Source: Escherichia coli
GTDB lineage: Bacteria; Pseudomonadota; Gammaproteobacteria; Enterobacterales; Enterobacteriaceae
Assembly (NCBI RefSeq): GCF_024502345.1
Contig: NZ_JALDNN010000001.1
Direction: 5' to 3' (one strand)
Length of the DNA stretch: 64,000 nucleotides
Each line of letters begins with the position of its first letter. The stretch's first letter is position 1. The notes under the pieces are model-generated. The model was not told where the DNA came from. It ran no database searches and saw nothing but the letters and a program-made list of their open reading frames with translations. Both the position numbers and the translations under genes were made by a program. Below are positions 6,137 through 28,100 of the stretch, piece after piece.

Positions 6137-6210
6137 TGCTTTAGTAAGGGCGTGACATTTGCGCCCTTTGCCTGATGTTCATATCTTAACTTGCTGAATT
6201 TTCGCCCTTT

Positions 6211-7305: not shown

Positions 7306-7311
7306 TTTCCC

Positions 7312-9388: not shown

Positions 9389-9392
9389 GCGT

Positions 9393-10212: not shown

Positions 10213-10271
10213 AATGCACTCCTTATGTTAACGAAAGGATTGTACAGTAAAGCGCATTTGTTAACGAATCA

Positions 10272-11003
10272 TTAAATGCCGAGTGGGAAAATATCATAGC
10301 CTTGTTCTTGCCAACTGGTGAGTTGCTGTTGTTGGGCGGAGGTTCGATTTTCACCGCACCACACCAGCAATGTACGGCCTTCGAACAGTTCAGGGCGTAG
10401 TTGATTGAGCGAGTGGGCGAGGACATCAATGCGCCATCCTTGTTGACTGGCAATCCAGCCCTCCAGCCACAGACGGGTGGTATCGTGAATATTCCAGCCA
10501 ACCACCAGCGCATCTTTACCCTGTTTTTTACGTGCCGAAGCCAGACAGATGGCGATGTAGTTGATCAGTACGCCGTCGAGGATCGCCAGCAGCGCCTGGA
10601 GAGTCGGTTGTTGGCACTGAAGCCGTCGACGCAGAGGAATAAACAAATGCGTGGTGAGCGTCTGGGCGGGGTAATCCTGACCGCGCTCTTTGATCCACGT
10701 TCGCAGGCTATGCAGATTGCCGCTTTGCAAGTAAGTCAGTAATGTTTCTTGCTGATCGCGCCAGCCGTTCTGCACATCAACATTTTCATTACTGAGCAGC
10801 ATTTTAACTTTGCTGACCTGCACGCCGTTGTCGATCCAGCGTTTGATCTCGCGGATCCGGTCAATATCGGCATCGTTGAACAGCCGATGACCGCCGTCTG
10901 TCCGTTGCGGTTTCAGCAATCCGTAACGCCTCTGCCACGCGCGTAACGTGACAGGGTTAATATCACAAAGCAACGCCACTTCACCAATTGTGTAAAGCGC
11001 CAT
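10272..11003 (-). CDS. mlrA: MerR-family transcriptional regulator (csgD activator)
   Basis: 243 aa; N-terminal MerR HTH MALYTIGEVALLCDINPVTLRAWQRRYGLLKP. Confidence 0.9.
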   Translation of the reverse strand: MALYTIGEVALLCDINPVTLRAWQRRYGLLKPQRTDGGHRLFNDADIDRIREIKRWIDNGVQVSKVKMLLSNENVDVQNGWRDQQETLLTYLQSGNLHSLRTWIKERGQDYPAQTLTTHLFIPLRRRLQCQQPTLQALLAILDGVLINYIAICLASARKKQGKDALVVGWNIHDTTRLWLEGWIASQQGWRIDVLAHSLNQLRPELFEGRTLLVWCGENRTSAQQQQLTSWQEQGYDIFPLGI

Positions 11004-11224
11004 CGTCTCACCCTTGCTCGCGAGGTCCCGGTTTAACTTTAGACGCAGTTTTGCGAACCAGGTAGTTTTGCCCGTTTTTTGTGCATTTATAGGGTGATTT
11101 TATTTTTGCCAGGCGATTTTGAGTGATCGTACTCACGAATTCTCATTTTTCTGCAAGAGTTCAAAGAAAGTTAAACGCAGGCAATGTATGTTACGCGTTT
11201 TAAAGGGAAGTGTGGTTTGCGGGT

Positions 11225-12910
11225 ATGTACGATTTTAATCTAGTGTTGCTGCTGCTTCAGCAGATGTGCGTTTTTTTAGTCATTGCATGGTTAATGAGTA
11301 AAACGCCATTATTCATACCGTTAATGCAGGTCACGGTTCGTCTGCCGCATAAATTTCTCTGCTACATCGTCTTTTCCATCTTCTGCATCATGGGCACCTG
11401 GTTTGGGTTGCACATTGACGATTCTATTGCCAATACCCGTGCGATAGGCGCGGTAATGGGCGGCTTACTCGGCGGTCCGGTCGTCGGTGGGCTGGTTGGC
11501 CTGACCGGCGGGTTACATCGATATTCGATGGGGGGCATGACCGCGCTAAGTTGCATGATCTCGACCATCGTTGAAGGATTGCTCGGCGGCCTGGTACACA
11601 GCATCCTGATCCGTCGCGGGCGCACTGATAAAGTCTTTAACCCCATTACCGCCGGTGCCGTCACGTTCGTCGCTGAAATGGTGCAAATGTTGATCATCCT
11701 GGCGATCGCCCGACCTTATGAAGATGCGGTGCGTCTGGTGAGTAATATTGCTGCGCCAATGATGGTCACCAATACCGTCGGCGCGGCGCTGTTTATGCGT
11801 ATATTGCTCGATAAACGCGCGATGTTTGAAAAATACACTTCGGCTTTTTCTGCCACTGCGCTGAAAGTGGCTGCCTCGACGGAAGGCATTTTGCGCCAGG
11901 GGTTTAACGAAGTGAACAGCATGAAAGTGGCACAGGTGCTGTATCAGGAGCTGGATATTGGTGCAGTCGCGATTACCGATCGAGAGAAATTGCTGGCCTT
12001 TACCGGAATTGGTGACGACCACCATTTACCCGGCAAACCGATATCTTCGACTTACACCTTAAAAGCGATTGAAACCGGTGAAGTGGTCTACGCTGATGGC
12101 AACGAAGTACCTTATCGTTGCTCTTTGCATCCGCAATGCAAACTGGGGTCGACGCTGGTAATTCCGTTGCGTGGTGAAAATCAGCGGGTGATGGGCACCA
12201 TCAAATTGTATGAAGCCAAAAACCGTTTATTCAGTTCAATCAACCGCACGCTGGGCGAGGGGATTGCGCAACTGCTTTCGGCGCAGATCCTCGCCGGGCA
12301 ATATGAGCGGCAAAAAGCGATGCTCACCCAGTCAGAGATCAAACTGCTTCACGCCCAGGTGAACCCCCATTTTTTGTTTAATGCGCTTAACACCATTAAA
12401 GCGGTGATCCGTCGCGACAGCGAACAGGCCAGCCAGCTGGTGCAGTATCTTTCCACTTTTTTCCGCAAAAACTTAAAGCGGCCTTCGGAGTTTGTTACTC
12501 TCGCCGACGAAATTGAACATGTGAACGCTTATCTGCAAATTGAAAAGGCGCGCTTCCAGTCGCGGTTGCAGGTCAACATTGCTATTCCGCAAGAATTATC
12601 CCAGCAGCAATTGCCCGCGTTTACCCTGCAACCGATAGTGGAAAACGCCATTAAACATGGGACATCACAACTGCTGGATACAGGGCGAGTGGCAATCAGC
12701 GCCCGACGTGAGGGGCAACATTTGATGCTGGAGATCGAAGACAATGCCGGTTTGTATCAACCGGTAACCAATGCCAGTGGGCTGGGGATGAATCTGGTGG
12801 ATAAGCGTTTACGTGAACGGTTTGGCGATGACTATGGGATAAGCGTCGCCTGTGAGCCTGATAGTTACACCCGAATAACCTTACGACTACCATGGAGGGA
12901 CGAGGCATGA
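11225..12910 (+). CDS. btsS: LytS-type sensor histidine kinase
   Basis: ORF 11210..12910 trimmed to [13 protein letters not shown] (561 aa); 5TM-LytS N-terminus, GAF and HisKA_3/HATPase regions. Confidence 0.9.
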
Positions 12911-13626
12911 TTAAAGTCTTAATTGTCGATGATGAACCGTTAGCACGGGAGAACCTGCGCGTATTTTTGCAGGAGCAGAGCGATATTGAAATCGTTGGTG
13001 AGTGTTCAAACACCGTGGAAGGGATCGGCGCGGTGCATAAACTGCGCCCGGATGTGCTGTTTCTCGATATCCAGATGCCGCGCATCAGTGGTCTGGAAAT
13101 GGTGGGGATGCTCGACCCGGAACATCGTCCGTATATTGTTTTTCTCACCGCGTTTGACGAATACGCCATTAAAGCCTTTGAAGAACACGCCTTTGATTAT
13201 CTGCTGAAGCCAATTGATGAAGCGCGACTGGAGAAAACGCTGGCGCGTTTGCGGCAGGAACGCAGCAAGCAGGATGTTTCGCTGTTACCAGAAAATCAAC
13301 AGGCGCTGAAATTTATCCCTTGTACTGGGCATAGTCGGATTTATTTGCTGCAAATGAAAGATGTGGCATTTGTCAGCAGTCGGATGAGCGGTGTCTACGT
13401 TACCAGCCACGAAGGGAAAGAGGGCTTTACCGAATTGACATTACGTACCCTGGAAAGTCGTACACCACTACTGCGCTGCCATCGTCAGTATCTGGTTAAC
13501 CTCGCGCATTTACAGGAGATTCGTCTGGAAGATAACGGCCAGGCCGAGTTGATTTTGCGTAATGGCTTAACCGTGCCGGTCAGCCGCCGTTATCTGAAAA
13601 GCTTAAAAGAGGCGATTGGCCTGTAA
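12907..13626 (+). CDS. btsR: LytTR-family response regulator
   Basis: [11 protein letters not shown] receiver domain plus LytTR output; ATGA overlap with btsS. Confidence 0.9.
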
Positions 13627-13672
13627 AAGACTGCTAAAATGGCTTTTTGCCTCATCAACACCTGAAGGCCTC

Positions 13673-14143
13673 ATGCTAAGTAACGATATTCTGCGCAGCG
13701 TGCGCTACATTTTGAAAGCCAATAATAATGACCTGGTGCGTATTCTGGCGCTGGGTAATGTCGAAGCCACCGCGGAACAGATCGCCGTCTGGCTACGTAA
13801 AGAAGACGAAGAGGGTTTTCAGCGTTGTCCGGACATTGTTTTGTCGTCATTCCTCAATGGCCTGATTTATGAAAAACGCGGCAAGGATGAGTCTGCTCCG
13901 GCACTGGAGCCGGAACGTCGCATTAATAACAACATCGTGCTAAAAAAATTACGCATCGCGTTTTCGCTGAAAACCGATGACATTCTGGCGATCCTCACCG
14001 AACAGCAGTTCCGCGTTTCGATGCCGGAAATTACGGCGATGATGCGTGCACCGGATCATAAAAACTTCCGCGAATGCGGCGATCAATTTTTACGTTATTT
14101 TCTGCGTGGACTGGCAGCGCGCCAGCATGTGAAGAAAAGCTAA
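13673..14143 (+). CDS. yehS: DUF1456 protein YehS
   Basis: ORF trimmed to MLSNDILRSVRYILK (156 aa); position after btsR. Confidence 0.8.
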   Translation: MLSNDILRSVRYILKANNNDLVRILALGNVEATAEQIAVWLRKEDEEGFQRCPDIVLSSFLNGLIYEKRGKDESAPALEPERRINNNIVLKKLRIAFSLKTDDILAILTEQQFRVSMPEITAMMRAPDHKNFRECGDQFLRYFLRGLAARQHVKKS

Positions 14144-14150
14144 GACGGGT

Positions 14151-14180
14151 ATGGCGGCCATGCGAAACATGGCCGCCGAC
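14151..14180. terminator. bidirectional terminator between convergent yehS and yehR
   Basis: 10-bp perfect stem GGCGGCCATG / CATGGCCGCC with 5-nt loop. Confidence 0.6.
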
Positions 14181-14183
14181 AGA

Positions 14184-14645
14184 TTATTTCACTTCTTTAA
14201 AACCAGCGGCTTTCATCACCAGTTCCATTTGCGCCATAGTGATACCTTTTTTGGCATCTTCAGCAGAAACGTTGATTCCTGAAATACCCTGCAGGGCTTT
14301 AAAATCCACTTTTTCCATATCGATAGTCACGTTTTCCTGCGCGTAGGTATCGGTATAGGTTAATTTTTCTTCAACACCCGCGATGTTTTTGTATTTGGCG
14401 CTTAACGGCTCAAGTGTCTTGGCAGCGTCTTCTTTGGTGGTTGCACCAATAGAGGCAAATTGAATTTTGGTTTCTGAAGATTGCTTAAGCACCTTGTCAC
14501 CTTTGTAGACATAGGTAATGGCAATTTCAGTGCCGTTCAGATTGGCGCTGAATTTCTTCGATTCTTCTTTGTCACCGCAGCCAGCAAGAGAGAAAACCAG
14601 AACAGATGCAACAACAAGGGAAAACAGCTTATTGAAAGCCTTCAT
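14184..14645 (-). CDS. yehR: lipoprotein YehR (DUF1307)
   Basis: MKAFNKLFSLVVASVLVFSLAGC lipobox; ~153 aa. Confidence 0.85.
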   Translation of the reverse strand: MKAFNKLFSLVVASVLVFSLAGCGDKEESKKFSANLNGTEIAITYVYKGDKVLKQSSETKIQFASIGATTKEDAAKTLEPLSAKYKNIAGVEEKLTYTDTYAQENVTIDMEKVDFKALQGISGINVSAEDAKKGITMAQMELVMKAAGFKEVK

Positions 14646-14769: not shown

Positions 14770-16773
14770 TCATCCTTGTTGCTGAAGCATGGGGAATAAT
14801 TGTTCGCACAGCAAAACGCAGTTATTCATTGCTTCTACCCGTGCCTCGCTTTCTGTATTACGAAATTGTCCCAATACATGTGCCAGCCGATAAAAAACCA
14901 CCGCGGTGAGGTCATTCGCCAGCAACTCTGCCTGACCAATAGCACTCTGTTCCTGATAGCGCCAGCCGTTATGGAGCAGTTGAATAAGTAATGCCTGGCA
15001 GCGCATCAGCAACTGATGAGCAGTAGACGGCACAGGCAGAACGCTGACAGAAGGTAGTGATGCCACCACAGGCGCAGTTTCTGCGTCCAGCGCCCAGGCA
15101 CGAGTCTTTGTCATCATTACCTGTGGTTCCAGTGTCAATTGCCCATCAACAAAACTGACAAAGCCAGAAACCAGACACACGGGGTCGTCTGTTTGTTGCA
15201 AAAGCGCCGCCATGCGTTCAATGGCATAAGGCGCGCTGGCTGAGGCTGGCAGTGATAACGTCAGCAGATTATCTTCACCTTCGCCGCTGATTACCTGCGC
15301 ATCCAGCGTCTGGCGGCTGCTATCCCAACCGAGCGAAATACACTCAGCGACCGGCAGAATAAATAAGTTATCGACCTGATTAAGAGGCCGTATGCAGGAG
15401 GGGGGACGCTGGCGTAAATATTCCCGCAAAGCCACAATGCCCGGCTGGCGTAACGGCGCGCTCAACATTTGCCAGGCATCAGGCGACAGCGGCACAACGC
15501 TGCTTAAGCGGTTGCGGGTAGCTAACAGCAGCTCGCCATCGGCACTGCGTTTTGCTGCTTGTGAAACAATTTGCCCACCCGCCAGTGCGCCAGCCTGAAA
15601 ACTAAACAGCCGACGCGTAGCTGCCGGTGAGTTTTCCTGTTCACTTCGCGGCCAACTGCGCGAAAGGTGCAAAATACTGCCGGTGTCGGGATCGGTAAAC
15701 CAGATGCGTAAACCATAATGCTCAATATCCTGCCAGCAACGCATACCTAAAGACACCAGCCGCAGATGATCAAGCTTTGCTTCTCCGGCAATGCCAGAGC
15801 CAACGACCGTGCGCCACGGCACAGGAGGAACTTCACCAACACTGTCGCGCCGCGCCATCTCTTGTGCGCAATTTAATCGACTGTTTAATGCCGCAAGCTG
15901 ACGTAAGCATTCTCCGGCATGATAGTGGCTGGCGCGGGCGTGGAAGGCATCAACGCTGGCGCGCAGTTGCCGTAGCGATTCACTCACCCATCGCCAGTTG
16001 CAGCGTTCCGCTGCTTGCTGCGCGCGGCTGAAAGCGGCCTCGTAGTGAATAAGCGGCTGGCTGATGCCGCCCAGCCATAATGCCTGGCTTAGTTGCTGAA
16101 CATATTGACGACACGTTTTGCCTTCTTCGCTGGCAAACAGATCGTCAGATGATGTGACGTGTTCGCTGCGCATCTGCCAGATTAAATGAGTCAATTCCGG
16201 TTGCTGCGCTTTTGCCTGGACAAAGGCCTGTACTGCCAGTACGACATGTTCGCAAAGTGTGCCTTCAATACAATCACAACGGGCGAAACGAATGCTGCTA
16301 CGGGAATAAAAACGCACATCGCTCATCGGTAAGCGGGCAGAGGGAATTTCGCCCGGCGTACAGAACAACTCAATGGTGATGCCTTTAGCGACCAGCGCCT
16401 GCGCGCGTTTGCGGGTGGCATCGGGCAGGGTAGCCAGTTCTTCCAGCCAGATTGCCGGATCCCACTCTTCTTCTTTTTCTGTGGGCTGGACGGTGGCACA
16501 AAGTCGTTGATAACTTAACACCAGCATCACGCGATGACGGCACATGCCGCTGGCCCCGCAGCTGCACTGAGCCTCTTTCAGTGCCTGGCCGTTCGCCAGC
16601 TGGGTACGGACACCGTCACTGAAGGTGGCGATTAAAGCGCCGTTCTCATGGCTGATCTCCGGGACGTTGCCATTTTCCAGTTCCTTAAGACTGCGCTTAA
16701 CAAAACCGGCATTGCTTAACGCTGTCAGGGCCTGCGGTGTCAGTTCTAATAATTCCGGACGTAGTGAATTCAT
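14770..16773 (-). CDS. yehQ: SWIM zinc-finger domain protein
   Basis: CxC...CxH SWIM motif (QCSCGASGMCRHRVM); start chosen at ATGA overlap with yehP stop. Confidence 0.8.
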   Translation of the reverse strand: MNSLRPELLELTPQALTALSNAGFVKRSLKELENGNVPEISHENGALIATFSDGVRTQLANGQALKEAQCSCGASGMCRHRVMLVLSYQRLCATVQPTEKEEEWDPAIWLEELATLPDATRKRAQALVAKGITIELFCTPGEIPSARLPMSDVRFYSRSSIRFARCDCIEGTLCEHVVLAVQAFVQAKAQQPELTHLIWQMRSEHVTSSDDLFASEEGKTCRQYVQQLSQALWLGGISQPLIHYEAAFSRAQQAAERCNWRWVSESLRQLRASVDAFHARASHYHAGECLRQLAALNSRLNCAQEMARRDSVGEVPPVPWRTVVGSGIAGEAKLDHLRLVSLGMRCWQDIEHYGLRIWFTDPDTGSILHLSRSWPRSEQENSPAATRRLFSFQAGALAGGQIVSQAAKRSADGELLLATRNRLSSVVPLSPDAWQMLSAPLRQPGIVALREYLRQRPPSCIRPLNQVDNLFILPVAECISLGWDSSRQTLDAQVISGEGEDNLLTLSLPASASAPYAIERMAALLQQTDDPVCLVSGFVSFVDGQLTLEPQVMMTKTRAWALDAETAPVVASLPSVSVLPVPSTAHQLLMRCQALLIQLLHNGWRYQEQSAIGQAELLANDLTAVVFYRLAHVLGQFRNTESEARVEAMNNCVLLCEQLFPMLQQQG

Positions 16774-17906
16774 GACTGAAGATTCTCCGCAAGCCATGAT
16801 GCCAGTTCGCCCGGTGTCATGGCGGCTATTTGTGCGCCGACATTAACCAGCGCCTGGGCCGTATCGCGGTCATAGCAAGGCGTTGCTGTGCTATCGAGCG
16901 CCGCCAGTCCCAGCACTTTGATGCCGCTCTGGACACACTTTTTCACCTGATGCGTCAGCAATGATGATGAACCCCCTTCGTAAAAATCGCTCACGAGGAT
17001 AATGACGCTTTTTGCTGGTTGTTCAATAAGTTGCCGACCATATTCCACGGCACTGGCGATATTGGTCCCGCCGCCCAACTGTACTTTCATTAATAACTCT
17101 ACCGGATCGGCAACGTCTGCCGTGAGATCAACGACGCTTGTGTCAAACGCCACCAGATGGGTACGAATGCCGGGTAACTGCCACAAACAGGCCGCCATCA
17201 CCGCAGAGTGGATCACCGAGTCCACCATCGATCCGCTTTGATCAACCAGTAAGACCAGTTGCCATTGTTCACTGTGGCGTTTAATGCGGCTGTTAAAGCG
17301 GGGGGATTCGATATACAACTTGCCGTGTTGCGGGTGCCAGTGTTGCAGGTTGGCGCGCAGAGTACTTTTGAAATCAAAGTTTCGCGCCAGTGGAATAAAT
17401 GAGCGGCGACGGCGATCGCGGACACCAGAAAAAGCCTGACGAACTTCCTTTGCCAGTCGAGCCATAATTTCTTCAACAACCTGGCGCACTATCCGGCGGG
17501 CGGCAGCCAGTACTTCGGGGTTCATCAGATGTTTGGTGTGCAAAACGGCGCGTAGCAGACTTTCAGAAGGCTGCATACGTTCCAGCACGTCGAGATTCGT
17601 CACCACATCTTCAATGCCGTAGCGCAGTACGGCATCGCTTTCCAGCCGCTCAATCACCTGTTGCGGAAACAGCGTGTGAATACTGTTGATCCACTCAGGG
17701 GTGGTGAGATTTGAGCTACCTAATCCACCGGAACGTTCACCACGCTGGAGCCGTTCAGGATCGCGCCCATACAGCCACTCCAGCGCGTGGTCTATCTGCC
17801 GGGCGTTGTCATCCAGCCCACAAAGCGTCGTTTCTGCCGCTTCGCCAAGAATTAATCGCCAGCGTTGTAGCTCACGGGTGGTCAGAAGATCGTTCAGTTC
17901 AGACAT
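16770..17906 (-). CDS. yehP: von Willebrand factor A (VWA) domain protein
   Basis: MIDAS motif DQSGSM; ORF trimmed to MSELNDLL start, 5 bp from yehM stop. Confidence 0.85.
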   Translation of the reverse strand: MSELNDLLTTRELQRWRLILGEAAETTLCGLDDNARQIDHALEWLYGRDPERLQRGERSGGLGSSNLTTPEWINSIHTLFPQQVIERLESDAVLRYGIEDVVTNLDVLERMQPSESLLRAVLHTKHLMNPEVLAAARRIVRQVVEEIMARLAKEVRQAFSGVRDRRRRSFIPLARNFDFKSTLRANLQHWHPQHGKLYIESPRFNSRIKRHSEQWQLVLLVDQSGSMVDSVIHSAVMAACLWQLPGIRTHLVAFDTSVVDLTADVADPVELLMKVQLGGGTNIASAVEYGRQLIEQPAKSVIILVSDFYEGGSSSLLTHQVKKCVQSGIKVLGLAALDSTATPCYDRDTAQALVNVGAQIAAMTPGELASWLAENLQS

Positions 17907-20178
17907 GGAAAACTCCCCAGTTTTGCAGCGATGCCAGTGCCTGCTGTTCGAGTTGTTGATGATGTGCAATGGCTTGTGGTGGACAATGCAACGGCATTTG
18001 CAGCGCCGAAACGGGAAGTTGCGCCAGTTGATAATGCTCAAGCACCTGATGCGCCAGCGTCCCGCGTTCTCGTGGTGGTAGCCAGGCCATCGCCGCGCGT
18101 AAATCGGGCAGGGCATTGATAAAATTGGCATCACTCAGTTGATTTAAATGACTGCTGAAACCGGCGATAAATGCCGGCTGACAGGCCAGTTGATGGCGGG
18201 CCAGCGCCAGCAAACCGTGCAGCGCTTCGCCGGATTGTGCCGGGGATAACTGCGCCAGCATCGTCAGCGCCGCTTCGGCACTAGCGTTGGGATGTTCCAG
18301 ACGCATCAGTGCGCCAAGAGCCGCGCCGCGATCCAGCGCCGGGGCATGGATTGCCTGACTGCGTCGCTCCAGTAAGGCTACCGCCGCAGAAAGAGAAACG
18401 CCGGGTAAATTAACGCCGCTATATAGATCGCGCAGGATATGGCAAAGCGCCTGCCAGCTATGCATGTGAGCGTGAAACTCCTTTTCATCTGGTCTGCCGT
18501 TAGATTCACACAGCCACAGCGTGCGATCGATAGCCGCGCATAACGTCGTTTGTAATATCTGCGCGCCTTGCATACCGCTAATTTCATCCAGCCGCCATAA
18601 GGCATATAGCACTTCCAGCGCCTGGCCCATTTCGGCAAATTGATTTTCCTGGGCGATTAATAATGTGAGTTGCTCCAGTAATTGTTGACTGAAGGACGCC
18701 AGACCCGCTAACGCCGCCTGGCTAAGACATGTGGTGATACTGCCGATTCCACCCGCGTCCAGCATATCGGTTTCTAATTTATGGCGTGCGGCTTCCTGGA
18801 GTGTGGCACCAAAGCAGGCGGCCTCAATCAATGCCGCATGCTGGCTAAGCGGGCGGGTTAATTTCCAGCGTTCTTCACCGTTGCCTGCAAGTGTCAGTGT
18901 GCTTCCCTGCTGGCGTACAATCCCTGGGATCTCCAGTATTGCCAGCCGATGTAACACCTGACTTTGCGCTAGTCCATTGGGGTTAAAGCGATTTAAGGTA
19001 AGCTCCGCCGGAAGAGAGATTGCGGTACGTTCCAGTTCGCAGGTGACATCTTTTGGCAGAGGCGGTTGTGGCGTAGAAGGGGCAAGTTTACCGAATCCGT
19101 CACCCGCTAATGTGTCTATCAACGTTAGCAGAATCGGATCGGTATCGGGATGAATAACGCCGCGATAGCTCCATGGCAACGGCGCATTCAGGGATTCTTT
19201 AATCAGCGAGCCTGCTAAGGCATCCAGCCAGTCAGTGCGTAACGGTAGTGTATGACCGCGCAACTGTGCCAGCGCCATCGCATGCAGATGAGCGGCAGCC
19301 ATATCCGCGGTCGAAGCAGGCAAGTGGTGTTGGCGCAAACGGGTAAGAACCGTTTTTAGCAGTTGTTCTCCCGCCTGCTGTAAGCCCCACTGCCAGCACC
19401 AGCTTTGCCAGACCGGGGCAGGCATTCCTGAAAGGTATCCTGCCAGCACATCAAGGCGCTTTTCACTGTAGGGTGTGAGATAACAACCTGTAACGGCATC
19501 TGCCAGCGAGGGCAATTCTGGCTTGTTAATGTCCTGCGGACATTCGCGCCACATTTTTGCCAGTGCCGGAGCGTGCCAGCCACCGCAGACGACTAACACG
19601 TCGCCATTGTTTTGCTGCATCGCCCATGCAATCCAGCGGGCCATGAAGGCTTCGCGCTGACGATTGAGAGCATCTCCGGGGGAATCGCCCCGCAGTTGTG
19701 CAAAATAGTGCGCCAGCGCAGAGGGTAATGCAGTTTGCTGGCTTTCATCTTCGAATAAGTGATCCCACAGGGTATCGCTGTTATCCATGCGGGTGGCACG
19801 CAGCAGTAAGGTCTGGCTTTCATCTTGCGTATCAGGCGAATCGTTCTCTTCTTCACTCTGCGCCCAGCAAGGCAAATCGATGAAGTAAGTTTATGCCTGA
19901 ATACGACGTGCGGCTTGTAGCGCCTGCCACTCCGGCGAAAATTCAGCAAATGGCGTCCAGGCACCACGCCCGGGGGCCGCACCGTCCTGATACTGGCAAT
20001 AACTGTAAATAGCTACCGGAAGCTGGTGGGCTAAAAACAGTTCGTCTACCCGGTCATTAAAATCAGCCGGGCCTTCAATCAACACGTATCGTGGCCGCTG
20101 GCTTTCGATTAATGATTTGACCAGCCGGGCGCAGGCCGGGCTATGATGCCGGATGCCGACAATTAACGGCTCGCTCAT
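17899..20178 (-). pseudogene. yehM: yehM interrupted by in-frame TAA (codon ~97 of 760)
   Basis: ORFs 19891..20346 and 17899..19875 share one frame, separated only by TAA at 19891..19893; total span 2280 nt = 759 aa + stop. Confidence 0.75.
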
Positions 20179-20188
20179 GCATCTTTCC

Positions 20189-21277
20189 TCACGGCAGGCG
20201 GTGGCGGGCTTGATAATAAGCCTGCCAGTGAGCTTCTTTATGTGTGGCGACACGCTGTTCGAAGTAACGGCGCAGACGAGCGCGATCTTCTTCGTTATCT
20301 TTGACGATGGTTCCGGCAATACAGTCCACCAGATCGGCTGGCTCACCTGCGCGATTCGCTAAAAACCAGGCGCGGACGCCCACAGCGTGGGCCACGTTCA
20401 CGGCTTCAGCGGTGGACATAATCGCTGTTAGTGTATCCATTGACGTTTTCTTTTCGCCGTTGGCACGCAGATCGCGGAAGGTGCGGACCAGTAACTCCAG
20501 TACCGCGTCAGGCACTTTATGCGGAATACCGCTATGGGCCAGCAAACGCGCCGAAGCACTGGCGACAAGCTCCAGCTCCTGGGCGAAATCCATAATCGGA
20601 AAGACAGTTTCAAAATCGAAGCGACGCTTTAGCGCAGCACTCATTTCATTGACGCCGCGATCGCGGGTATTGGCAGTGGCAATAATATTAAAGCCTTCTC
20701 GCGCATAGAGCTGACTGGCTTCACCAGTGAGTTCCGGCACCGTCATCACCCTGTCAGAAAGCATACCTAACAGACAGTCTTGCACTTCCAGCGGTGTACG
20801 CGTTATCTCTTCAAAACGGACGATTTTGCCGTCGCGCATTCCCTGGTAAAGCGGGGCAGGGACCAGCGCTTCCGTTGATGGACCATGATTGATAAGCAGG
20901 GCGTAGTTCCAGCCGTACTTGATTTGATCTTCGGTAGTAGATGCGCCGCCCTGGATGGTTAACCCGGCATCGCCGCTAATAGAGGTTGCCAGTAATTCAG
21001 ACAGGAGAGATTTTGCGGTGCCAGGTTCCCCCACCAACATCAAACCGCGTCCGGTGGCAAGAGTGACTAACATACGTTCGACAGCGGAGGGACTAATCAC
21101 CACTTTACGGCTAATATTTTGCGCGCTATCGCCAAGGATAAAAGCACGGGCCGCAGGCAAACTTAACTGCCAACCGGGCGGGCAAGGTGCGTTATCATTT
21201 TGTTTTAATTTTGCCAGTTCATCGGCGTATAACACAGCAGCAGGCGGACGCTGCAGATGATTATTCTGCGGTGACAT
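20189..21277 (-). CDS. yehL: MoxR-family AAA+ ATPase
   Basis: Walker A GEPGTAKS, MoxR/CbbQ-like core; ORF trimmed to MSPQNNHLQ (362 aa). Confidence 0.85.
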   Translation of the reverse strand: MSPQNNHLQRPPAAVLYADELAKLKQNDNAPCPPGWQLSLPAARAFILGDSAQNISRKVVISPSAVERMLVTLATGRGLMLVGEPGTAKSLLSELLATSISGDAGLTIQGGASTTEDQIKYGWNYALLINHGPSTEALVPAPLYQGMRDGKIVRFEEITRTPLEVQDCLLGMLSDRVMTVPELTGEASQLYAREGFNIIATANTRDRGVNEMSAALKRRFDFETVFPIMDFAQELELVASASARLLAHSGIPHKVPDAVLELLVRTFRDLRANGEKKTSMDTLTAIMSTAEAVNVAHAVGVRAWFLANRAGEPADLVDCIAGTIVKDNEEDRARLRRYFEQRVATHKEAHWQAYYQARHRLP

Positions 21278-21385
21278 ATATTCATCCCTGAAATGTATTA
21301 ATGAAATAAACGATATTTTACGCGCAATAAATGTTTGGCGCATTAGTTGTTTGAGCGAAAAATATCTGGAAAGCAGATCACAGTA

Positions 21386-21471
21386 AATAAAAAAACCTGC
21401 TGGTGAGGCAGGTTCTTTTATTTACTATTTTCAGGCCTAACACCACAGCCTGTGCAACATCGTGTTCCAAC
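21386..21471 (-). ncRNA. candidate Orz-like antitoxin sRNA (copy 1)
   Basis: minus-strand promoter (-35 TTGCAA 21501..21506, 17-bp spacer, -10 TATAAT 21478..21483), intrinsic terminator at 21386..21413; 5' end complementary to zor 5'UTR 21618..21638. Confidence 0.55.
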
Positions 21472-21477
21472 GAACGA

Positions 21478-21528
21478 ATTATAACCACGGCTGGACCCCG
21501 TTGCAATTAAGATAATGAGATTTATAAT
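21478..21528. promoter_or_regulatory. divergent promoter pair sharing one palindromic -35 hexamer TTGCAA (copy 1)
   Basis: plus strand: TTGCAA-16 bp-TATAAT (21523..21528); minus strand: same TTGCAA-17 bp-TATAAT. Confidence 0.55.
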
Positions 21529-21709
21529 CCTGACTGTTGGGACGTTGCGCCGGATCGAACCTATTTCAAGTCCTGGCTACCGGACGGGGGGTGCTGCAGG
21601 TAGTGCCCTGATCCGGAGTGCAACATCGTGGTCCAACATACGTAAACCAGTATCGACAGGCAGTGTAAGGGTAAGGTGCTGGTGTTGCGCTCCTTAATAA
21701 GGAGAGCGG

Positions 21710-21799
21710 ATGGACTCGCTGACACAAAAGTTAACCGTGCTCATTGCTGTACTGGAGCTATTAGTGGCTCTGTTACGGTTGATTGATTTGTTGAAGTAA
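21710..21799 (+). CDS. type I toxin, 29 aa MDSLTQKLTVLIAVLELLVALLRLIDLLK (ZorO/ZorP-like)
   Basis: hand translation; GGAGAG RBS; single hydrophobic helix; ~174-nt leader from predicted TSS; near-identical copy 608 bp downstream. Confidence 0.7.
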   Translation: MDSLTQKLTVLIAVLELLVALLRLIDLLK

Positions 21800-21820
21800 C
21801 GGGCAAATTGAAACGCATCT

Positions 21821-21846
21821 AAGGGGGAAAACCGCTTCCCCCTTTA
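21821..21846 (+). terminator. intrinsic terminator of toxin mRNA copy 1
   Basis: GGGGGAA-loop-TTCCCCC hairpin followed by TTTAATAAA. Confidence 0.7.
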
Positions 21847-21995
21847 ATAAAATGATTACTGTTTTTATTAATTCATCATATAACTCATTTTTATTTATAA
21901 ATTCATCGATTTTATATTCAACGCACCATTTGACCGGGATGTGAATATTTATGTTGGGCTATTGGCAAAAAATATCTGGAAAGTAGATCGCAGAA

Positions 21996-22079
21996 AATAA
22001 AAAAACCTGCTGGTGAGGCAGGTTCTTTTATTTACTACAGTGACGCTAACTTGCTGATTGTGCAACATTTCGTACCAAC
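21996..22079 (-). ncRNA. candidate Orz-like antitoxin sRNA (copy 2)
   Basis: same promoter/terminator architecture as copy 1 (-35 22109..22114, -10 22086..22091, hairpin 22006..22022). Confidence 0.55.
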
Positions 22080-22085
22080 GAATAA

Positions 22086-22136
22086 ATTATATCCATATCC
22101 ACACTCCATTGCAATTCAGTGAGTGAGATTTATAAT
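22086..22136. promoter_or_regulatory. divergent promoter pair sharing palindromic TTGCAA (copy 2)
   Basis: TTGCAA 22109..22114; plus-strand TATAAT 22131..22136; minus-strand TATAAT (rc) 22086..22091. Confidence 0.55.
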
Positions 22137-22317
22137 CCTGCCCGTTGGGAGGTTGTGCCGGATCGGACCAATTTTAAGTCCTGGCTGCCGGACGGGTGGT
22201 GCCGCAGGCGGTGCCCTGATCCGGAGAGCAACGTTTCGTACCAACATACGTAAACCAGTATCAACAGGCAGTGTAAGGGTAAGGTGCTGGTGTTGCGCTC
22301 CTTAATAAGGAGAGCGG

Positions 22318-22407
22318 ATGGACACGCTGACACAAAAGTTAACCGTGCTCATTGCCGTACTGGAGTTATTAGTGGCTCTGTTACGGTTGATTGATTTGTT
22401 GAAGTAA
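22318..22407 (+). CDS. type I toxin, 29 aa MDTLTQKLTVLIAVLELLVALLRLIDLLK (ZorO/ZorP-like)
   Basis: hand translation; differs from copy 1 by S3T; same RBS and leader structure. Confidence 0.7.
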   Translation: MDTLTQKLTVLIAVLELLVALLRLIDLLK

Positions 22408-22428
22408 CGGGCAAATTGAAACGCATCT

Positions 22429-22454
22429 AAGGGGGAATACCGTTTCCCCCTTTA
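22429..22454 (+). terminator. intrinsic terminator of toxin mRNA copy 2
   Basis: GGGGGAA-loop-TTCCCCC hairpin + T-run. Confidence 0.7.
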
Positions 22455-22516
22455 AGAAAGCTATACTCGTCATACTTCAAGTTGCATGTGCTGCGACTTT
22501 AATTATCTAGAGTATA

Positions 22517-22834
22517 TTATTCTATTTCTTGGTTGAATATATTCTGTAGTTCACGATTAAAAATTGCTATTACAGTTTCAGGTGATTCACCTCGTAATTT
22601 CCGCTCATCAATACACTCATCTCTTATATAAATCAACGCATCATTTATTAGCGGGTCAGCATCTTCTCGATCACGTTGATGAAATGTTGGATGTAGCCGG
22701 AATCGCTCCAGTCGATAGACGGAACCTGTAAATAATTCAGAGCATTTATGGATCTCAAGTCTGAAGGAAAACGGATCTTCAGGTACAGGGACCTCATAAT
22801 CGTAAATAGCAACTAGCTCTTTTTGCACGATCAT
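22517..22834 (-). CDS. yehK: hypothetical protein YehK
   Basis: 105-aa ORF in syntenic position. Confidence 0.7.
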   Translation of the reverse strand: MIVQKELVAIYDYEVPVPEDPFSFRLEIHKCSELFTGSVYRLERFRLHPTFHQRDREDADPLINDALIYIRDECIDERKLRGESPETVIAIFNRELQNIFNQEIE

Positions 22835-22894
22835 CGCTTTCCCCGCTGGTAAGTCGTGTAGATAACGGGCAGTCGCATCACTGCCCGCTGTGTT

Positions 22895-25102
22895 TTAATG
22901 GAAAATGACGTCAGGTGCGCTTAACGCCTCACTCAAATCAAACACATCAAGTTCGGCAAAAGTGACGGATTTATTGTCACGGTACACTCGAAGAGAACGG
23001 AAGCTCATTAGCGCTTTGCTATCAACATTGTAGTGGTTAAAACCGGGTGAAAACTTAAGGACCAGCCGGTACTCGCCCAGGTCATAGACAAATGCATCCT
23101 CATAGCCTGACTCCCAGCCTTTGTATCGCATTCCCATAAGCTGCCCAACGGTAGCGGATTTACCTTCCCAGCGAGTCAGGCTGTTACTGGTTGACTCGTC
23201 AGGTGTGAGCAGCACCGTGCACCGCGCCAACTGGCGAAAAGGCGGCATAATTTCGTAATCGGCAAAAAGCTGTGCAAATTCACTGCGCATTTCTACTGTC
23301 ATTTCTAACGGGTGGGCAATGCCAATCAGAGCGTCCGCAGGCAGGTCAATTGGCTCATCTTGCGCATTGCAGAACTCCCCCTCTGCGGCCACACGAAAGG
23401 CGTTGAGTAAACAACGCGGTTCATTTGCCGGATAAGCCCCCCATATTAATCGCTGGGTAACCAGACGGGTAAAGGGATGATTAACAAACAGAGAATGAAA
23501 ATCTGCCAGCGACCAGCGTCGGGTGGTACGTAGGGCCGTTTCAAGACGCGGGAGCAGGTTTTTGCTCACCTGAGTGGCATCTTTTTTTAGCCCTTTTAGT
23601 CGGGCCAGTGCCTCGGGCGCTTTCAGTTGATCGTCATCGGCGCGCAACCGGGGAACGCTTTTCTGGCGAACGTTTTGCTGATCAAAGATAACCGGGTTGA
23701 GGTTTTCATCGAAGCGAACGGTAAACTGCCGGGGACCAAAATCAAAACTCAACGCCTGCGGATCATCAAGGCCCAGGGTTGGGACTAATCTGTCCGCTAG
23801 CTCTTCCTGGCTTAGCCCGCGATTTTCTGCGACCACCTGAAGAAATTCCGCCGCGTTATCACGTAAGGGGCGGGATTTCGCCCGTTGCGATATATGATGC
23901 AGCTGTATCAGCGCCATATCATTATTCATCAGGGTAAGGATGTTCAGGCCACTGACAGCACGGGCAGATTTGCCTTCTTGTGGCCAGCCGAGGATCTGTG
24001 TCGTTAGATCCCGTGCCGTGCTTTCGTCACCAAAGAGACTTAACGCCAGAAATGCCCAGTTGTCTTTTACGGGGGCACCAGCTTGTTGCCACGCAGTGAA
24101 GAGATCCCAGGCAAAAGCTGCCAGCGTTTGTGGCTGGCAGAACGTTTTCAGTTGTTCCAGCCCGCTATAAAAACGTCCCCCCTGGGTAAAGCGCAGCATT
24201 TCGCCGATAATTTCCAGAGCGTCATCGGTAACAGGTTGATTATTAGTGATAAGGCGCGGCCTGGACCACATTTGCGGATGCCAGAAATCAGGGGCTTTTG
24301 GAATGCGTGCCGGGTAAATCTCTATTGGACTCTGTTTAAGTAATTGTTCCAGGGCAGGCCATAGATCTGTACGCTGCCAACGATTGGCTACAGTTTGTAG
24401 CAATTCGCCATGCCCATGTTCGTAAAGTAAACGCAGGGCAAGTAATGCAGCTTCGCTTTTATCGCTAGATTTGGTGAAGACAAGAGGGATAAGTGCAGTA
24501 GCCGTATGTTCCGGCCATTGTAAAATCCACTGGCGAGCCAGATTACGCTGGCCCGCAAAACGCTGCCAGCAGCTTTCCTCTGCCAGAGAGAGATGCTTAC
24601 GCAGTCGGAGATCGAATTCGTTATAGGTTTCTGAGCGATAACCATAGCCATAATCCTCGTCCTGATACTGCAATGTCACTACCAGAGGATCACTCTCATA
24701 ACACCGCGCAATAAACTGGCGTGCAATCACCACCTCAGTCGCATATTCCAGCCCCTCTTGTTGGACGATTTCGTCGAGCAACTGTTGGCTGTCATTTTGC
24801 GCGATACAGGCTAGCGCCGCCATTGTCCGGGGCGGGATTGAGGGTTTGTGTTCGCCGATCAAGTTGATGGCCTGCGTGATGGCGGACTGCCACTCCAGTG
24901 AAAAATTTTCATAACGCCAGACAATGTTTTTTTTCTTCTCAGCTTTTTGTAGCAATTCATCACCCAGTGTCTGAATGATGCTTTCAGTGATAACAGGCAC
25001 TGGTTCGCCCGGCCAATTGCGATGGCTGAGTGGTGTTTTACCATTTTTATATTTCAGTTCCAGTTGGGCGTTATCAGCCAGCCACGGTAATTCCTTGTCC
25101 AT
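22895..25102 (-). CDS. yehI: DUF4132-type protein, shortened paralog of MolR
   Basis: 735 aa; C-terminal region clearly paralogous to MolR (FHSLFVNHPFTRLVTQRLIWGAY vs FQLFLVEHPLVRHLTRRLIWGVY); starts 10 bp after molR stop. Confidence 0.75.
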   Translation of the reverse strand: MDKELPWLADNAQLELKYKNGKTPLSHRNWPGEPVPVITESIIQTLGDELLQKAEKKKNIVWRYENFSLEWQSAITQAINLIGEHKPSIPPRTMAALACIAQNDSQQLLDEIVQQEGLEYATEVVIARQFIARCYESDPLVVTLQYQDEDYGYGYRSETYNEFDLRLRKHLSLAEESCWQRFAGQRNLARQWILQWPEHTATALIPLVFTKSSDKSEAALLALRLLYEHGHGELLQTVANRWQRTDLWPALEQLLKQSPIEIYPARIPKAPDFWHPQMWSRPRLITNNQPVTDDALEIIGEMLRFTQGGRFYSGLEQLKTFCQPQTLAAFAWDLFTAWQQAGAPVKDNWAFLALSLFGDESTARDLTTQILGWPQEGKSARAVSGLNILTLMNNDMALIQLHHISQRAKSRPLRDNAAEFLQVVAENRGLSQEELADRLVPTLGLDDPQALSFDFGPRQFTVRFDENLNPVIFDQQNVRQKSVPRLRADDDQLKAPEALARLKGLKKDATQVSKNLLPRLETALRTTRRWSLADFHSLFVNHPFTRLVTQRLIWGAYPANEPRCLLNAFRVAAEGEFCNAQDEPIDLPADALIGIAHPLEMTVEMRSEFAQLFADYEIMPPFRQLARCTVLLTPDESTSNSLTRWEGKSATVGQLMGMRYKGWESGYEDAFVYDLGEYRLVLKFSPGFNHYNVDSKALMSFRSLRVYRDNKSVTFAELDVFDLSEALSAPDVIFH

Positions 25103-25111
25103 GCTCTTTCC

Positions 25112-28100
25112 TTATTCAAACAGGGCTTCAATATCGTTAATTAGCTCGCTGGCGGTGATGGCATCGAGTACGGAGAGCTGCGCTTCCTGTGTTGAATTAC
25201 TCCCCCAGCCATAGCTTTCCGCTTTGCCTTCCCATAGCCACAGCTTGCTTAAGAGCTGCTCAGCGCTAAGTTCGGCTGGTGACATACCCACTGCAAAGCC
25301 TTCATCGATTTCCATGATTAACGACCAGCGGCCCAGAGGTTTGATCATCCAGCCGATCCAGCCTCCATCCTGTGGTTCGCCCTTTATCCAGCCTTTATTC
25401 GCCAGCCCCATTACCCGACCGCTCGGGCATTTTCTGCTTGCCCAGCGGGTCAGTTCGCTGGCATTGCGCTCGGTTTCTGTCAGGGCGTAACTGTTACGGT
25501 CGAGCTGGCGGAACGGCGGTAGCAGTTCGTAGTCGGCAAAAAGCTGCCCAAATGCGGCGGCATCCGTCGGTGATATTTCCAGAACGTGAGGAATACCAAC
25601 AGAGATATCGCCTTCCGGCAGGGTGAAAAGATCATCGTCAGCGGTGCTGTAGCTGTTATCTTCCGCTACGCGAAAGCAAGCCAGTAGCTGGTTTTCGGCG
25701 CTATAAACACCCCAAATCAGACGGCGGGTTAAGTGGCGAACCAACGGATGCTCAACCAGGAAGAGCTGGAAGTTTTCCGGCGACCAGCGGCGGCGCAGGC
25801 ACATGGCGGATTCCAGCCTTGCTACCTGCTGGGCGGCGACGGTACGCGCATCTTTTTTCAGCAATTTGTAGCGGTTAACCGCATCGTTCGCCTGTGATTC
25901 ATCATCGCTTTTATTGGGTTTAGGTAAGTCTTTCAGGCGGCTGCCGGAAACATCACGCACAAACGGTTTTAAGGTTTCATCAAAGCTGACGGTGAACTGG
26001 CGTGGGCCAAAATCCAGCAGCAACGAACCGTTATCATCCAGACCGAGATCCGGTGCTAACCGATCTTCAAGCTCCGCCACTGTCAGTTCGCGACTTTCGG
26101 CAATGTCGGCAATTTTCTCTTTCGCCCGCTCCTGTAATGCTTTGAATTTCAGTTTCTGGGCAATGCCGTTAAGCTGCATCAGGGCGATATCACTACCGAT
26201 AGCGGCGAGAATATCCAACCCAACGGTGGCGCGTTTATGCTGAGATTCGCCAGGCCAGGCGCGGATTAATGGCGTCAGTTTGCGGGCGGTGTCATCGTTG
26301 CCGAGAACACCTAACGCAATGAACGCCCAGCTTTCTTTCGATGGCGCGCCCGCAGTCAGCCAGGCGGTAAACAGATCCCAGGCAAATTCAGCCAGTGAGT
26401 CGGCGGTACAGGCATCTTTCACCTGCAATAATCCCGGATACAGAGCCTCTTCCTGAGGGAAGCGGAGCATTTCACCGAGGTGCTGGAGTGCGCTATCGGG
26501 CAGTGATTGGGCGTTTGCTTTTAATACCGGGCGCGTCCAGAGCGATGGCTGATAAAAGGCCGGAAGAGTGGGGATTTTTGTCGGGTGATTATCTAAGGGA
26601 TCGAGCGCAAGCAGAGCGTTCACCGCGTCTGTTACTTCCGGCTGGTTATAACGCCGGGCGATTTCTTGCAGTAATGGCTGATGACCATTTTCGGTAAGCA
26701 TACGCAAGGCAGCGCGGGCGTTATCCTGTGCTTCACCGGCTTTGCCGAGCGCCGCAGGCAGCAGGCCGGTAAGGGCATGTTCCGGGTATTTCAGCAGCCA
26801 GGTGCGGGCGTCTTGTCGTAGGGTTTTGAGTTTGTTGAAGGCGCGGGCGACGGCAGGAGCTAGCTCACTCGCTGCGAAGTAATTCGTGATGGGCAAGGCT
26901 TCCTGCGGATAGCGTGTAATTGAGTTAACTAAACCAGGTAAACCTTTGAGTCCAAAATGTAACATGGCGTATTCGGTATCGGTATGTGGAGATAGAGTAA
27001 GGGCATTCCATGCTTTTACTGCTTTCTCCAGCGGCAATGTTGTCAAAATCCCCAAATGCCAATAATGCCCGGTAGGTGAATGAAACACCTTAAATTCACT
27101 TATTAAGGTTGAATAATCTTCATTTAGCCATGCCTCAACTACCGCTTCGGGAGCTTTAATATATGTACCAGCGATCCGTCGTTGAAAACCCATCCTTGCC
27201 AACAGGTTGGTAGTACTTTCTTCATGGCTAACCGTGATGTGTTGTGAATACCAGATATATTTCGCCAAAAGTTGATTACTGATTTCTTCTGTCATATAAC
27301 AGATTGGCTCAATGCCTAATGGCGCTAAATCCAGCACCGGAATCGGCGATTTTTTCTTTTTCGAAAGCCATGGTGGGGAGACTACTATGGCAGGCAGTAG
27401 ATCGGCGCAGGCATGGTTTGAGGGCTGTGTCAGTTGTTGCTGGCATGATTTCAGTACGGCAACTGCGGGTGTCGAGAGCCAGGGAAGGACCTGTTCTGCC
27501 AGTGCTGGTTGTGAGATAAGCATTGTCATTAGCATAATGCGCCAACTGTTCTCTTCTTTTTGCCCAAGAAGTTCCGTCAGTGCCGCCATTGCTGCATGTG
27601 GGAACGCAGCAATGGCTTTCGTCATCCGATCGTGACAGCGTTTAGTTTGCCCGGCTACACGTATAAGCAGTGTCAATGCGACCGGATGATTGATATGACG
27701 CAACACATCGGCGCAGTAGTCACTTGCGGCATAGGGAGCAAATCGGGGCAGGGCTGCAACACCTTGCTCCTGTAATACGGTGGCTGACCATATCGCACCA
27801 CAATAGTAATCATCAAAAATGGCATATGGCTCGTGATATTTTTCTAATGAGGCAAGAATGTGCTCATCAGTCGCCACTATTTTTAACCACTCAAGCGAGG
27901 GTAATTTTTTTTGCCCCAGTAGACGCTGGGCAATTTCATGTGCAATTTCTGGTTTTTCGGGTAATAACAAAGCAATTAATGGTTGCCGCCATTCTGGAAT
28001 ATGTGGAATTGCGGCAATAAGTTTTTGTGCACATTTTTGCCAGAGAGACTCTTCCGCCAGTGATAAATGTTTACGTAGGCGTAATTCAAATCTGGAATAT

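Follow-up and report, generated by a model that had tools for sequence, protein, structure and literature searches.

The genes yehL, yehM, yehP and yehQ of Escherichia coli, together with a DUF4132 gene, form a unit of five components; in the genome studied here the DUF4132 component is represented by molR and yehI. The unit is a MoxR-VWA system whose composition has no description in the literature searched, and it is conserved from E. coli to actinomycetes. It was studied in a window of 64,000 nucleotides, the whole stretch of DNA analysed, taken from contig NZ_JALDNN010000001.1 of assembly GCF_024502345.1. A first-pass annotation of this DNA had described a four-gene system covering positions 14770-21277; this span stops short, leaving out yehK, yehI and molR (22517-28906) and a LexA box (28914-28933). 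The preferred interpretation, which is tentative and given slightly less than an even chance, is that yehLMPQ and molR/yehI make up one self-contained five-component machine acting on DNA or on DNA-bound proteins. With the unit recognised, one of its members being a known SOS gene, a collection of y-genes and DUFs becomes open to experimental test, and intact natural alleles and residues for mutation can be named. The genes and the regulatory site are located in the window as follows:

14770-16773, minus strand: yehQ, 667 amino acids, SWIM protein
16770-17906, minus strand: yehP, 378 amino acids, VWA (CoxE-type) protein
17899-20178, minus strand: yehM, 759 codons, DUF5682; TAA stop at codon 96
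20189-21277, minus strand: yehL, 362 amino acids, MoxR-class AAA+ (AAA_5); intact
22517-22834, minus strand: yehK, 105 amino acids, between yehI and yehL
22895-25102, minus strand: yehI, 735 amino acids here, DUF4132 paralogue without WGR
25112-28906, minus strand: molR (also yehH), 1264 amino acids, WGR and DUF4132; intact
28914-28933, minus strand: LexA (SOS) box AACTGGATATAAATACAGGA, found by pattern match, 7 nt 5' of the molR ATG

The four minus-strand open reading frames (ORFs) first described at 14770-21277 are present and equal the RefSeq genes of a 99.9 % identical E. coli chromosome (L001). yehL and yehM are separated by 10 bp, and yehP and yehQ overlap by 4 bp (ATGA), as had been noted; the overlap between yehM and yehP is 8 bp (ATGTCTGA) and not the 5 bp given before. 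The gap and overlap junctions bear out the translational coupling proposed for yehLMPQ.

The composition of the unit becomes apparent when other bacteria are considered. One genome per species (100,044 species) was scanned using an alignment of 28 YehM homologues; among the 600 matches listed, at least 529 stretches encode a YehM relative. Locus counts given here refer to the best 80 of these at least 529 loci, all retrieved through YehM; they span Enterobacterales, Burkholderiales, Xanthomonadales, Myxococcota, Actinomycetota and Acidobacteriota. Using phmmer with the E. coli proteins, YehL is found in all 80 loci, YehP in 77, YehQ in 75 and relatives of YehI (DUF4132) in 73. L, M, P and Q occur together across phyla; this decisively contradicts a restriction of the set to E. 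coli, which would have counted against the earlier proposal. The restriction to four genes does not stand, since a DUF4132 gene joins L-M-P-Q in the 73 loci and lies inside the operon on a Sinorhizobium plasmid.

Typically, one to three or more DUF4132 genes in tandem come first, followed by L, M, P and Q on a single strand; YehP is encoded two genes 3' of YehL on the same strand in 77 of the 80 loci. The most frequent junction is a 4-bp overlap, both between M and P (43/65) and between P and Q (46/60). In 52 of 73 loci the DUF4132 partner starts with a WGR domain, as it nearly always does where only one copy exists. In most loci a WGR-DUF4132 gene lies directly 5' of L-M-P-Q; molR is the E. 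coli orthologue of this fifth, usually operon-first, component. Independent gene calls with precomputed Pfam matches give the same recurring string (WGR+DUF4132, AAA_5, DUF5682, VWA_CoxE, SWIM-like) in Variovorax, a myxobacterium, Burkholderia, Catellatospora and Microbispora. All five parts are kept in the permuted orders L-M-DUF4132-P-Q, found on the Sinorhizobium plasmid, which is conjugative, and L-M-P-Q-DUF4132, found in Burkholderia. L-M-P is found alone in a few lineages. Clustering of the remaining flanking ORFs in the 80 loci showed no family in common beyond within-genus synteny. yehK is matched by phmmer in only one of the 80 loci (Escherichia whittamii); it occurs in Escherichia alone and probably does not belong to the core of the module.

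Some loci contain additional genes. In Variovorax sp. PAMC26660 (L083 8387-8824), a 145-amino-acid gene without Pfam match lies between the WGR-DUF4132 and AAA_5 genes, in a position like that of yehK; no sequence similarity to YehK was detected. In Betaproteobacteria bacterium MS502-89 (L093 9163-10008; also L029 and L036), a 281-amino-acid Bro-N gene is found between the AAA_5 and DUF5682 genes, and no VWA, SWIM or DUF4132 gene was seen in L093 up to the contig end. Bro-N is a phage-associated DNA-binding domain. Plasmid carriage is rare (38 of 72,556 plasmid records, mainly chromids or mis-assigned chromosomes), and in phages the module was essentially never found. The mobilisable Iodobacter fluviatilis plasmid pl1 (L088, 76.8 kb) carries a complete module at 1345-14593, in which IS200/IS605 and IS3 elements interrupt one DUF4132 gene and the SWIM gene is split into two ORFs; a type I restriction-modification system is located directly 3' of it.

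The MoxR ATPase, VWA/MIDAS and SWIM assignments made earlier agree with Pfam matches to AAA_5, VWA_CoxE and SWIM, and the corresponding motifs can be read in the proteins. YehL matches AAA_5 with E = 1.6e-33 and contains GEPGTAKS. Among 81 sequences, conservation is at least 97 % for its Walker A motif (G83-S90), for R154-F-E-E157 at the Walker-B position and for N203 and R218/R219; judged by sequence, YehL carries every motif of an active MoxR AAA+ ATPase, sensor 1 and the arginine finger included. The closest solved structures in a PDB sequence search are the AAA modules of midasin (E down to 5e-10). The match to the bpMoxR Pfam model is marginal (E = 0.002 over 52 residues), and there is a weak NCBIfam match to GvpN. 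E. coli has just two MoxR ATPases; YehL is one of them and is the name-giver of an uncharacterised 'YehL subfamily' (PMC3893208).

YehP matches VWA_CoxE (E = 6.4e-72), contains DQSGSM and has no additional domain in its 378 residues; an N-terminal helical region of ~150 residues is conserved. The residues of the predicted MIDAS site (D222-Q-S224-G-S226, T281 and D307) are at least 97 % conserved among 75 sequences, and the site is complete. The score of YehP against the NCBIfam cobaltochelatase model is 17.9 bits, with a cut-off of 779.

YehM had been described as having no recognisable domain. This has to be revised; it matches DUF5682 in Pfam (E = 9e-99), and its structure model has an N-terminal alpha/beta domain (~1-240) resembling TIKI, TraB, ChaN and erythromycin esterase, followed by a C-terminal alpha-solenoid of ~500 residues. 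In the model, the core is a parallel beta-sheet alpha/beta fold of the type that defines the TIKI superfamily. The fold search is headed by a TraB-family protein (11.4), ChaN (10.1), the erythromycin-esterase-like structure 2rad (10.1), HopBA1 (9.6) and the erythromycin-esterase-like structure 2qgm (8.4); EreC, RRSP and the C1/C2 domain of PMT rank lower, and the rest are HEAT/ARM-type solenoids. Active TIKI-superfamily proteins are hydrolases of peptide or ester bonds and rely on a set of His and Glu residues (PMC6254334). Among 80 YehM sequences, G8-x-x-H11(H12), E35, H51, D101 and G199-x-x-H202 are at least 97 % conserved, and the conserved His and Glu residues are placed at the C-terminal ends of the core strands in the model. 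Since an invariant His-Glu-His set at strand ends matches the GxxH...E...GxxH pattern of the superfamily, the N-terminal domain is a probable hydrolase, with a peptide or ester bond as its likely target.

Among 1.84 billion cluster representatives, a profile search recovered 3353 YehM relatives. A few are long (about 1,140-1,220 amino acids; P0349, P0365 and about six others), and both of the long relatives checked are DUF5682-VWA fusions, i.e. YehM joined to YehP, with a VWA part 52-55 % identical to E. coli YehP; the others are candidate fusions and may include gene-call artefacts. The natural fusions and the overlapping genes suggest that YehM is physically coupled to YehP. Two other leads on YehM were discarded: matches of the YehM profile to ATP-synthase subunit b in the PDB are helical and spurious, and a role as a CobN/BchH-like chelatase subunit finds no counterpart in the fold search, which gave TIKI/TraB and HEAT-like repeats and no CobN/BchH.

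YehQ matches SWIM in Pfam (E = 1e-3) and contains CxCx5CxH twice. The first copy (C70-x-C72-x5-C78-x-H80) is at least 97 % conserved; the second (160-183) is present in E. coli and is not conserved. A structure model built from 27 sequences has a predicted local distance difference test (pLDDT) score of 90.4. From the N- to the C-terminus, it contains two SWIM-like modules (1-200), a helical bundle, a tandem OB region (~330-560) and a C-terminal helical bundle. Foldseek matches of this model in the PDB are uniformly tandem-OB nucleic-acid binders: p202 HIN1 with double-stranded DNA, baculovirus LEF-3, RPA70 with single-stranded DNA and CST, followed by the HIN domains of MNDA and AIM2, POT1 and bacterial single-stranded-DNA-binding proteins.

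In MolR, WGR covers residues 8-69 (E = 2.4e-17) and DUF4132 covers residues 988-1173 (E = 1.3e-50), and intact YehI is also assigned to DUF4132 by Pfam. The LexA box of molR matches the LexA consensus TACTGTATATATATACAGTA at 16 of 20 positions and retains CTG-N10-CAG; the metG terminator region is located just upstream of it. In a published list of E. coli genes, molR appears under 'known SOS box' (PMC6590174). A similar box, CTGGATAAAAACACAG, precedes the Klebsiella grimontii orthologue, 9 nt 5' of the ATG (L004 1461-1476). Synonymous sites are saturated between E. coli and K. grimontii, yet the box is retained near the same position. molR belongs to the LexA (SOS) regulon, an assignment which applies to molR alone; consequently, at least the putative sensor component is produced in response to DNA damage. 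A second input at the molR promoter is activation by BglJ-RcsB; K-12 has a disrupted molR (PMC3950696). In Deinococcus radiodurans, DRA0166 (DUF4132) and DR2173 (WGR) are targets of DdrO and are up-regulated after mitomycin C in an IrrE-dependent manner (PMC8533742). Damage thus induces these domains in a distant phylum too, there under another regulator.

The WGR domain, the SWIM and OB folds, the LexA box and the DdrO control in Deinococcus point to a DNA-directed AAA+/MIDAS remodeller carrying a hydrolase. In such a machine YehL, probably as a hexamer, would combine with YehP to pull at the expense of ATP, as other MoxR-VWA pairs and midasin do, and YehP would be the adaptor that grips the target. 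YehM may provide a scaffold through its alpha-solenoid, coupled to YehP, in addition to the TIKI/TraB-type hydrolase. MolR/YehI (WGR-DUF4132) and YehQ (SWIM, OB) would target DNA ends, nicks or single-stranded DNA. yehLMPQ would be expressed from its own H-NS-silenced promoter and molR under LexA control. The role favoured for this machine is a response to damage or foreign DNA, in which pulling and hydrolysis would remove or process a protein at DNA. One specific version is damage-inducible clearing of proteins trapped on DNA, where WGR-DUF4132 and SWIM/OB would locate the site, YehL-YehP would extract the protein and YehM would cleave it; this version is rather improbable. If true, it would be a prokaryotic functional analogue, made of unrelated parts, of the p97/Cdc48-SPRTN/Wss1 pathway for DNA-protein crosslinks. 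A DNA-directed function in general would explain what bacterial WGR domains, DUF4132, DUF5682 and the SOS gene molR are for.

A number of observations weigh against a DNA-directed hydrolytic machine. The OB-fold matches of YehQ are borderline (E 1e-3 to 1e-2). OB folds can also bind proteins or sugars, and the function of bacterial WGR domains is extrapolated from PARPs. In YehM, the first catalytic Glu of the TIKI set appears, from the spacing, to be replaced (R10). The Pfam search of YehM gave DUF5682 alone and no TraB, Tiki or Erythro_esteras, and a search of the PDB with a profile of 28 YehM sequences, at E <= 10, brought up no chain of TIKI type. Non-catalytic proteins with a TIKI fold exist; ChaN binds haem and PMT lacks the motif. 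Regulation raises further difficulties. Scans for CTGT-N8-ACAG, AT-rich CTG-N10-CAG and GAAC-N4-GTTC upstream of the module in all loci were positive in Escherichia and Klebsiella only and found none in Burkholderiales, Xanthomonadales, Actinomycetota or Myxococcota, many of the actinobacterial loci ending before the first DUF4132 gene; a candidate site 80 nt upstream in Undibacterium is doubtful. No LexA-type box was found by pattern scan upstream of yehL. In addition, molR-yehI-yehK and yehLMPQ are separated by a gap of 0.3-1.2 kb in E. coli, 1.2 kb here. The gap in the window contains two sites with a hairpin and T-run at the 3' ends of minus-strand OrzO-P matches, which the scan registers on the plus strand. 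This gap with its hairpins and the response of yehL and yehM to H-NS/StpA make SOS co-induction of yehLMPQ uncertain.

The state of the locus in E. coli shows that the unit is generally maintained. Of 5426 complete E. coli genomes, 5202 (about 96 %) carry the yehLMPQ block, always at the one chromosomal site. The ratio of non-synonymous to synonymous substitution rates (dN/dS) is 0.03-0.18 for yehLMPQ (0.03-0.04 for yehL) by the Nei-Gojobori method, comparing E. coli with E. coli, with E. whittamii and with K. grimontii; these values indicate that the four genes are functional in Escherichia generally. For molR dN/dS is 0.15 and for yehI 0.25. yehLMPQ is intact in five of six sampled E. coli genomes, strains such as GmM062 and 806883-11-2019 have every gene from molR to yehQ intact, and clusters of full-length, 759-amino-acid YehM have more than 19,000 member sequences, compared with a few thousand for truncated forms. 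Lesions do occur: yehI is annotated as frameshifted in three of the six genomes, strain CV601 has a stop in yehQ and a frameshift in molR, and a yehQ stop is noted for a K-12-like genome. yehLMPQ has a G+C content of 0.53-0.59, compared with 0.41-0.50 in the flanks. In hns/stpA mutants yehL and yehM are up-regulated, and H-NS is bound in the upstream intergenic region (PMC3686432). High G+C and H-NS silencing of maintained genes fit an old horizontal acquisition that is silenced under laboratory conditions. In E. coli strain 148 (L084 8720-9417), IS1A is inserted between yehR and yehQ, and in a sublineage of sequence type 131 (ST131) the blaCTX-M-15 transposon TnMB1860 is inserted in the metG/DUF4132/yeh region (PMC9334617); the locus evidently tolerates insertions.

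In the strain studied here, the module is almost certainly inactive, and the loss is strain-specific. This is explained by two lesions, Q96* in yehM and a deletion in yehI. Codon 96 of yehM, CAA in L001, is TAA in the window (19891-19893; G to A at 19893 on the plus strand). The premature stop reported in the first-pass annotation is therefore real, and it is recent, as the near-identical L001 has CAA at this codon. yehI has an in-frame loss of ~475 amino acids (about residues 182-656) relative to the 1210-amino-acid form; this deletion had been missed and adds to the grounds on which inactivity was first suggested. In a BLASTP comparison with the intact YehI of L002, residues 1-185 of the window protein match 1-185 and residues 171-735 match 646-1210. 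The deletion breakpoints lie in look-alike short sequences, LSLAEESCWQR and LALPVAHVWRR, which hint at an internal repeat in DUF4132 proteins. yehL, yehP, yehQ, yehK and molR remain open. The window differs from L001 by six substitutions over 6.7 kb; the five coding differences are all non-synonymous and are too few to infer relaxed selection.

Other explanations for the module can be considered on the same data. The first-pass annotation had raised the possibility of a conflict system. In a possible but unlikely scenario of this kind, the module would defend against phages or plasmids: DUF4132/WGR and SWIM/OB would be the sensors of invading nucleic acid, the MoxR-VWA pair would impose an ATP-dependent threshold and YehM would be the effector, with its TIKI-fold domain acting, for example, as a protease causing abortive infection. 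With its several components, a central NTPase and a predicted hydrolase, the module resembles the MoxR-vWA conflict systems that Kaur et al. described, and the TIKI relatives RRSP and HopBA1 are of toxin type. DUF4132 copy number varies from one to at least three. Across phyla, sequences share a median identity with E. coli of 72 % for YehL, 41 % for YehM and 33 % for YehQ. Change is most rapid in the DUF4132 proteins and YehQ; YehM, like YehQ, diverges more quickly than YehL and YehP, and 72 % identity of YehL between E. coli and actinomycetes suggests horizontal spread. The atypically high G+C content and H-NS silencing of yehLMPQ, the restriction-modification system and IS elements beside the Iodobacter plasmid module, and the Bro-N gene between L and M in one lineage are also consistent with defence. 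The genomic context disfavours it. A search of PADLOC-DB 2.0 (2023) returned 0 families at E <= 0.01 for YehL, YehM, YehP, YehQ, YehK and YehI. The locus is close to fixed at a single site in E. coli and is syntenic with Klebsiella, yehR and yehS included; flanking genes are housekeeping or metabolic in eight of nine contexts inspected; and the module is rare on true plasmids and essentially missing from phages. The low dN/dS gives no signal of diversifying selection. If defence were nevertheless the function, the module would be a new MoxR-VWA-based immune system located in the core genome; this and the DNA-directed reading would both imply a new use of a midasin-like AAA+/MIDAS motor in bacteria.

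It is very unlikely that the module is a dedicated MoxR-VWA maturation chaperone, inserting a metal or cofactor or activating a client, as the name 'molybdate metabolism regulator' for MolR might suggest. Most characterised MoxR-VWA pairs are of this kind (PMC3893208), YehP falls in VWA_CoxE and has the weak cobaltochelatase match, YehL has the GvpN match, and the fold of the YehM N-domain is shared with haem-binding ChaN. Known pairs adjoin their clients, whereas no conserved client gene lies beside the module in the 80 loci; NCBIfam scores are far under the cut-offs (17.9 against 779; 32.9 against 267); and WGR, SWIM, tandem OB and LexA control would be left unexplained. The Deinococcus study saw no response of molybdenum genes (PMC8533742), and molR is disrupted in K-12. 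A three-subunit chelatase (BchI/D/H or CobS/T/N) was rejected, as there is no CobN/BchH-type subunit and the YehP score is so low. There is similarly little likelihood that in E. coli the locus no longer has a function and is what remains, silenced and decaying, of an element gained by horizontal transfer. H-NS silencing, the lesions in yehM and yehI of the window, in yehI of three of the six genomes, in yehQ and molR of CV601 and in molR of K-12, and the resistance transposon tolerated in the DUF4132 region of the ST131 sublineage would fit such decay. The dN/dS values of yehLMPQ, molR and yehI, the intact yehLMPQ of five of the six genomes, the predominance of full-length YehM clusters and the LexA box kept between Escherichia and Klebsiella despite saturated synonymous sites all argue against it.

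The module differs from each of the known systems it resembles. RavA-ViaA, the other MoxR system of E. coli, likewise has a MoxR AAA+ gene next to a VWA/MIDAS gene (PMC3893208); however, it belongs to the RavA subfamily and is a two-gene operon without DUF5682, SWIM or DUF4132/WGR partners. RavA-ViaA interacts with respiratory complexes, and nothing comparable is known for the yeh module. The vWA-MoxR-VMAP ternary systems share the MoxR and vWA core, large extra proteins and hydrolytic effector domains. Their third component is VMAP, iSTAND, FtsH or a beta-propeller, and their vWA proteins carry the effectors as fusions; no effector is fused to YehP, whose partners are DUF5682, SWIM-OB and WGR-DUF4132. 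Assignment of the yeh module to these ternary systems was rejected on this basis, there being no VMAP, iSTAND, FtsH or propeller part and no vWA-fused effector. The paper of Kaur et al. 2020 on MoxR-vWA systems makes no mention of SWIM, WGR, YehL, MolR or DUF4132.

Midasin (Rea1) also combines an AAA_5-type ATPase with a MIDAS domain and helical-repeat scaffolds. Its six AAA modules are fused in a single chain of 4,700-4,900 residues, which strips assembly factors from pre-60S particles; in the yeh module the ATPase, MIDAS domain and scaffold are on separate proteins and there are DNA-type accessory domains. The CoxD/CoxE, NorQ/NorD, CbbQ/CbbO and BchI/BchD pairs resemble YehL-YehP as AAA+ and VWA/MIDAS pairs, and YehP is a member of VWA_CoxE. 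CoxD/CoxE-type pairs are encoded beside their client, in contrast to the yeh module, which has no conserved client and scores far under the curated cut-offs. YehM has two GxxH motifs and a Glu at core-strand ends, as in active members of the TIKI superfamily; it differs from them in the apparent replacement of one catalytic Glu, the lack of a sequence-profile match, a helical insert of ~90 residues, the fused alpha-solenoid of ~500 residues and its setting in an AAA+ system. ZSWIM8 and other SWIM proteins, the RPA/HIN binders and the WGR domains of PARPs show single-domain resemblances to YehQ and MolR only, on which DNA binding is predicted; none of these proteins works with a MoxR-VWA pair.

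The earlier statement that the arrangement has no assigned function holds: the YehL subfamily is uncharacterised, there is no PADLOC model and Kaur et al. 2020 are silent on these domains. Searches of NCBIfam gave sub-threshold matches to GvpN, MadB, McrB and cobaltochelatase only, and the PDB sequence search gave nothing for YehM, YehP, YehQ or YehI. A search of full-text literature, with subscription journals mostly outside it, found no functional study of the yeh/molR genes, DUF5682 or DUF4132; the literature on these genes consists of regulation data (H-NS, LexA, BglJ-RcsB) and the naming of the MoxR subfamily. That YehL and its partners have gone without a function for decades can be explained in part by the disruption of molR in K-12.

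The 1.2-kb gap between yehL and yehK has an unusual content. Positions 21355-22480 of the window comprise a tandem duplication of ~610 bp, with a start-to-start spacing of 608-610 bp and repeat families that are 86 % and 95 % identical. Rfam identifies OrzO-P antitoxin RNAs on the minus strand at 21389-21464 (99.9 bits) and 21999-22072 (88.8 bits). Each copy also has a 29-amino-acid ORF on the plus strand, MDSLTQKLTVLIAVLELLVALLRLIDLLK at 21710-21799 and MDTLTQKL... at 22318-22407. By its sequence, the duplication is the zorO/orzO-zorP/orzP type I toxin-antitoxin pair; the presence of this pair explains why the gap is 1.2 kb here and ~0.3 kb in other E. coli.

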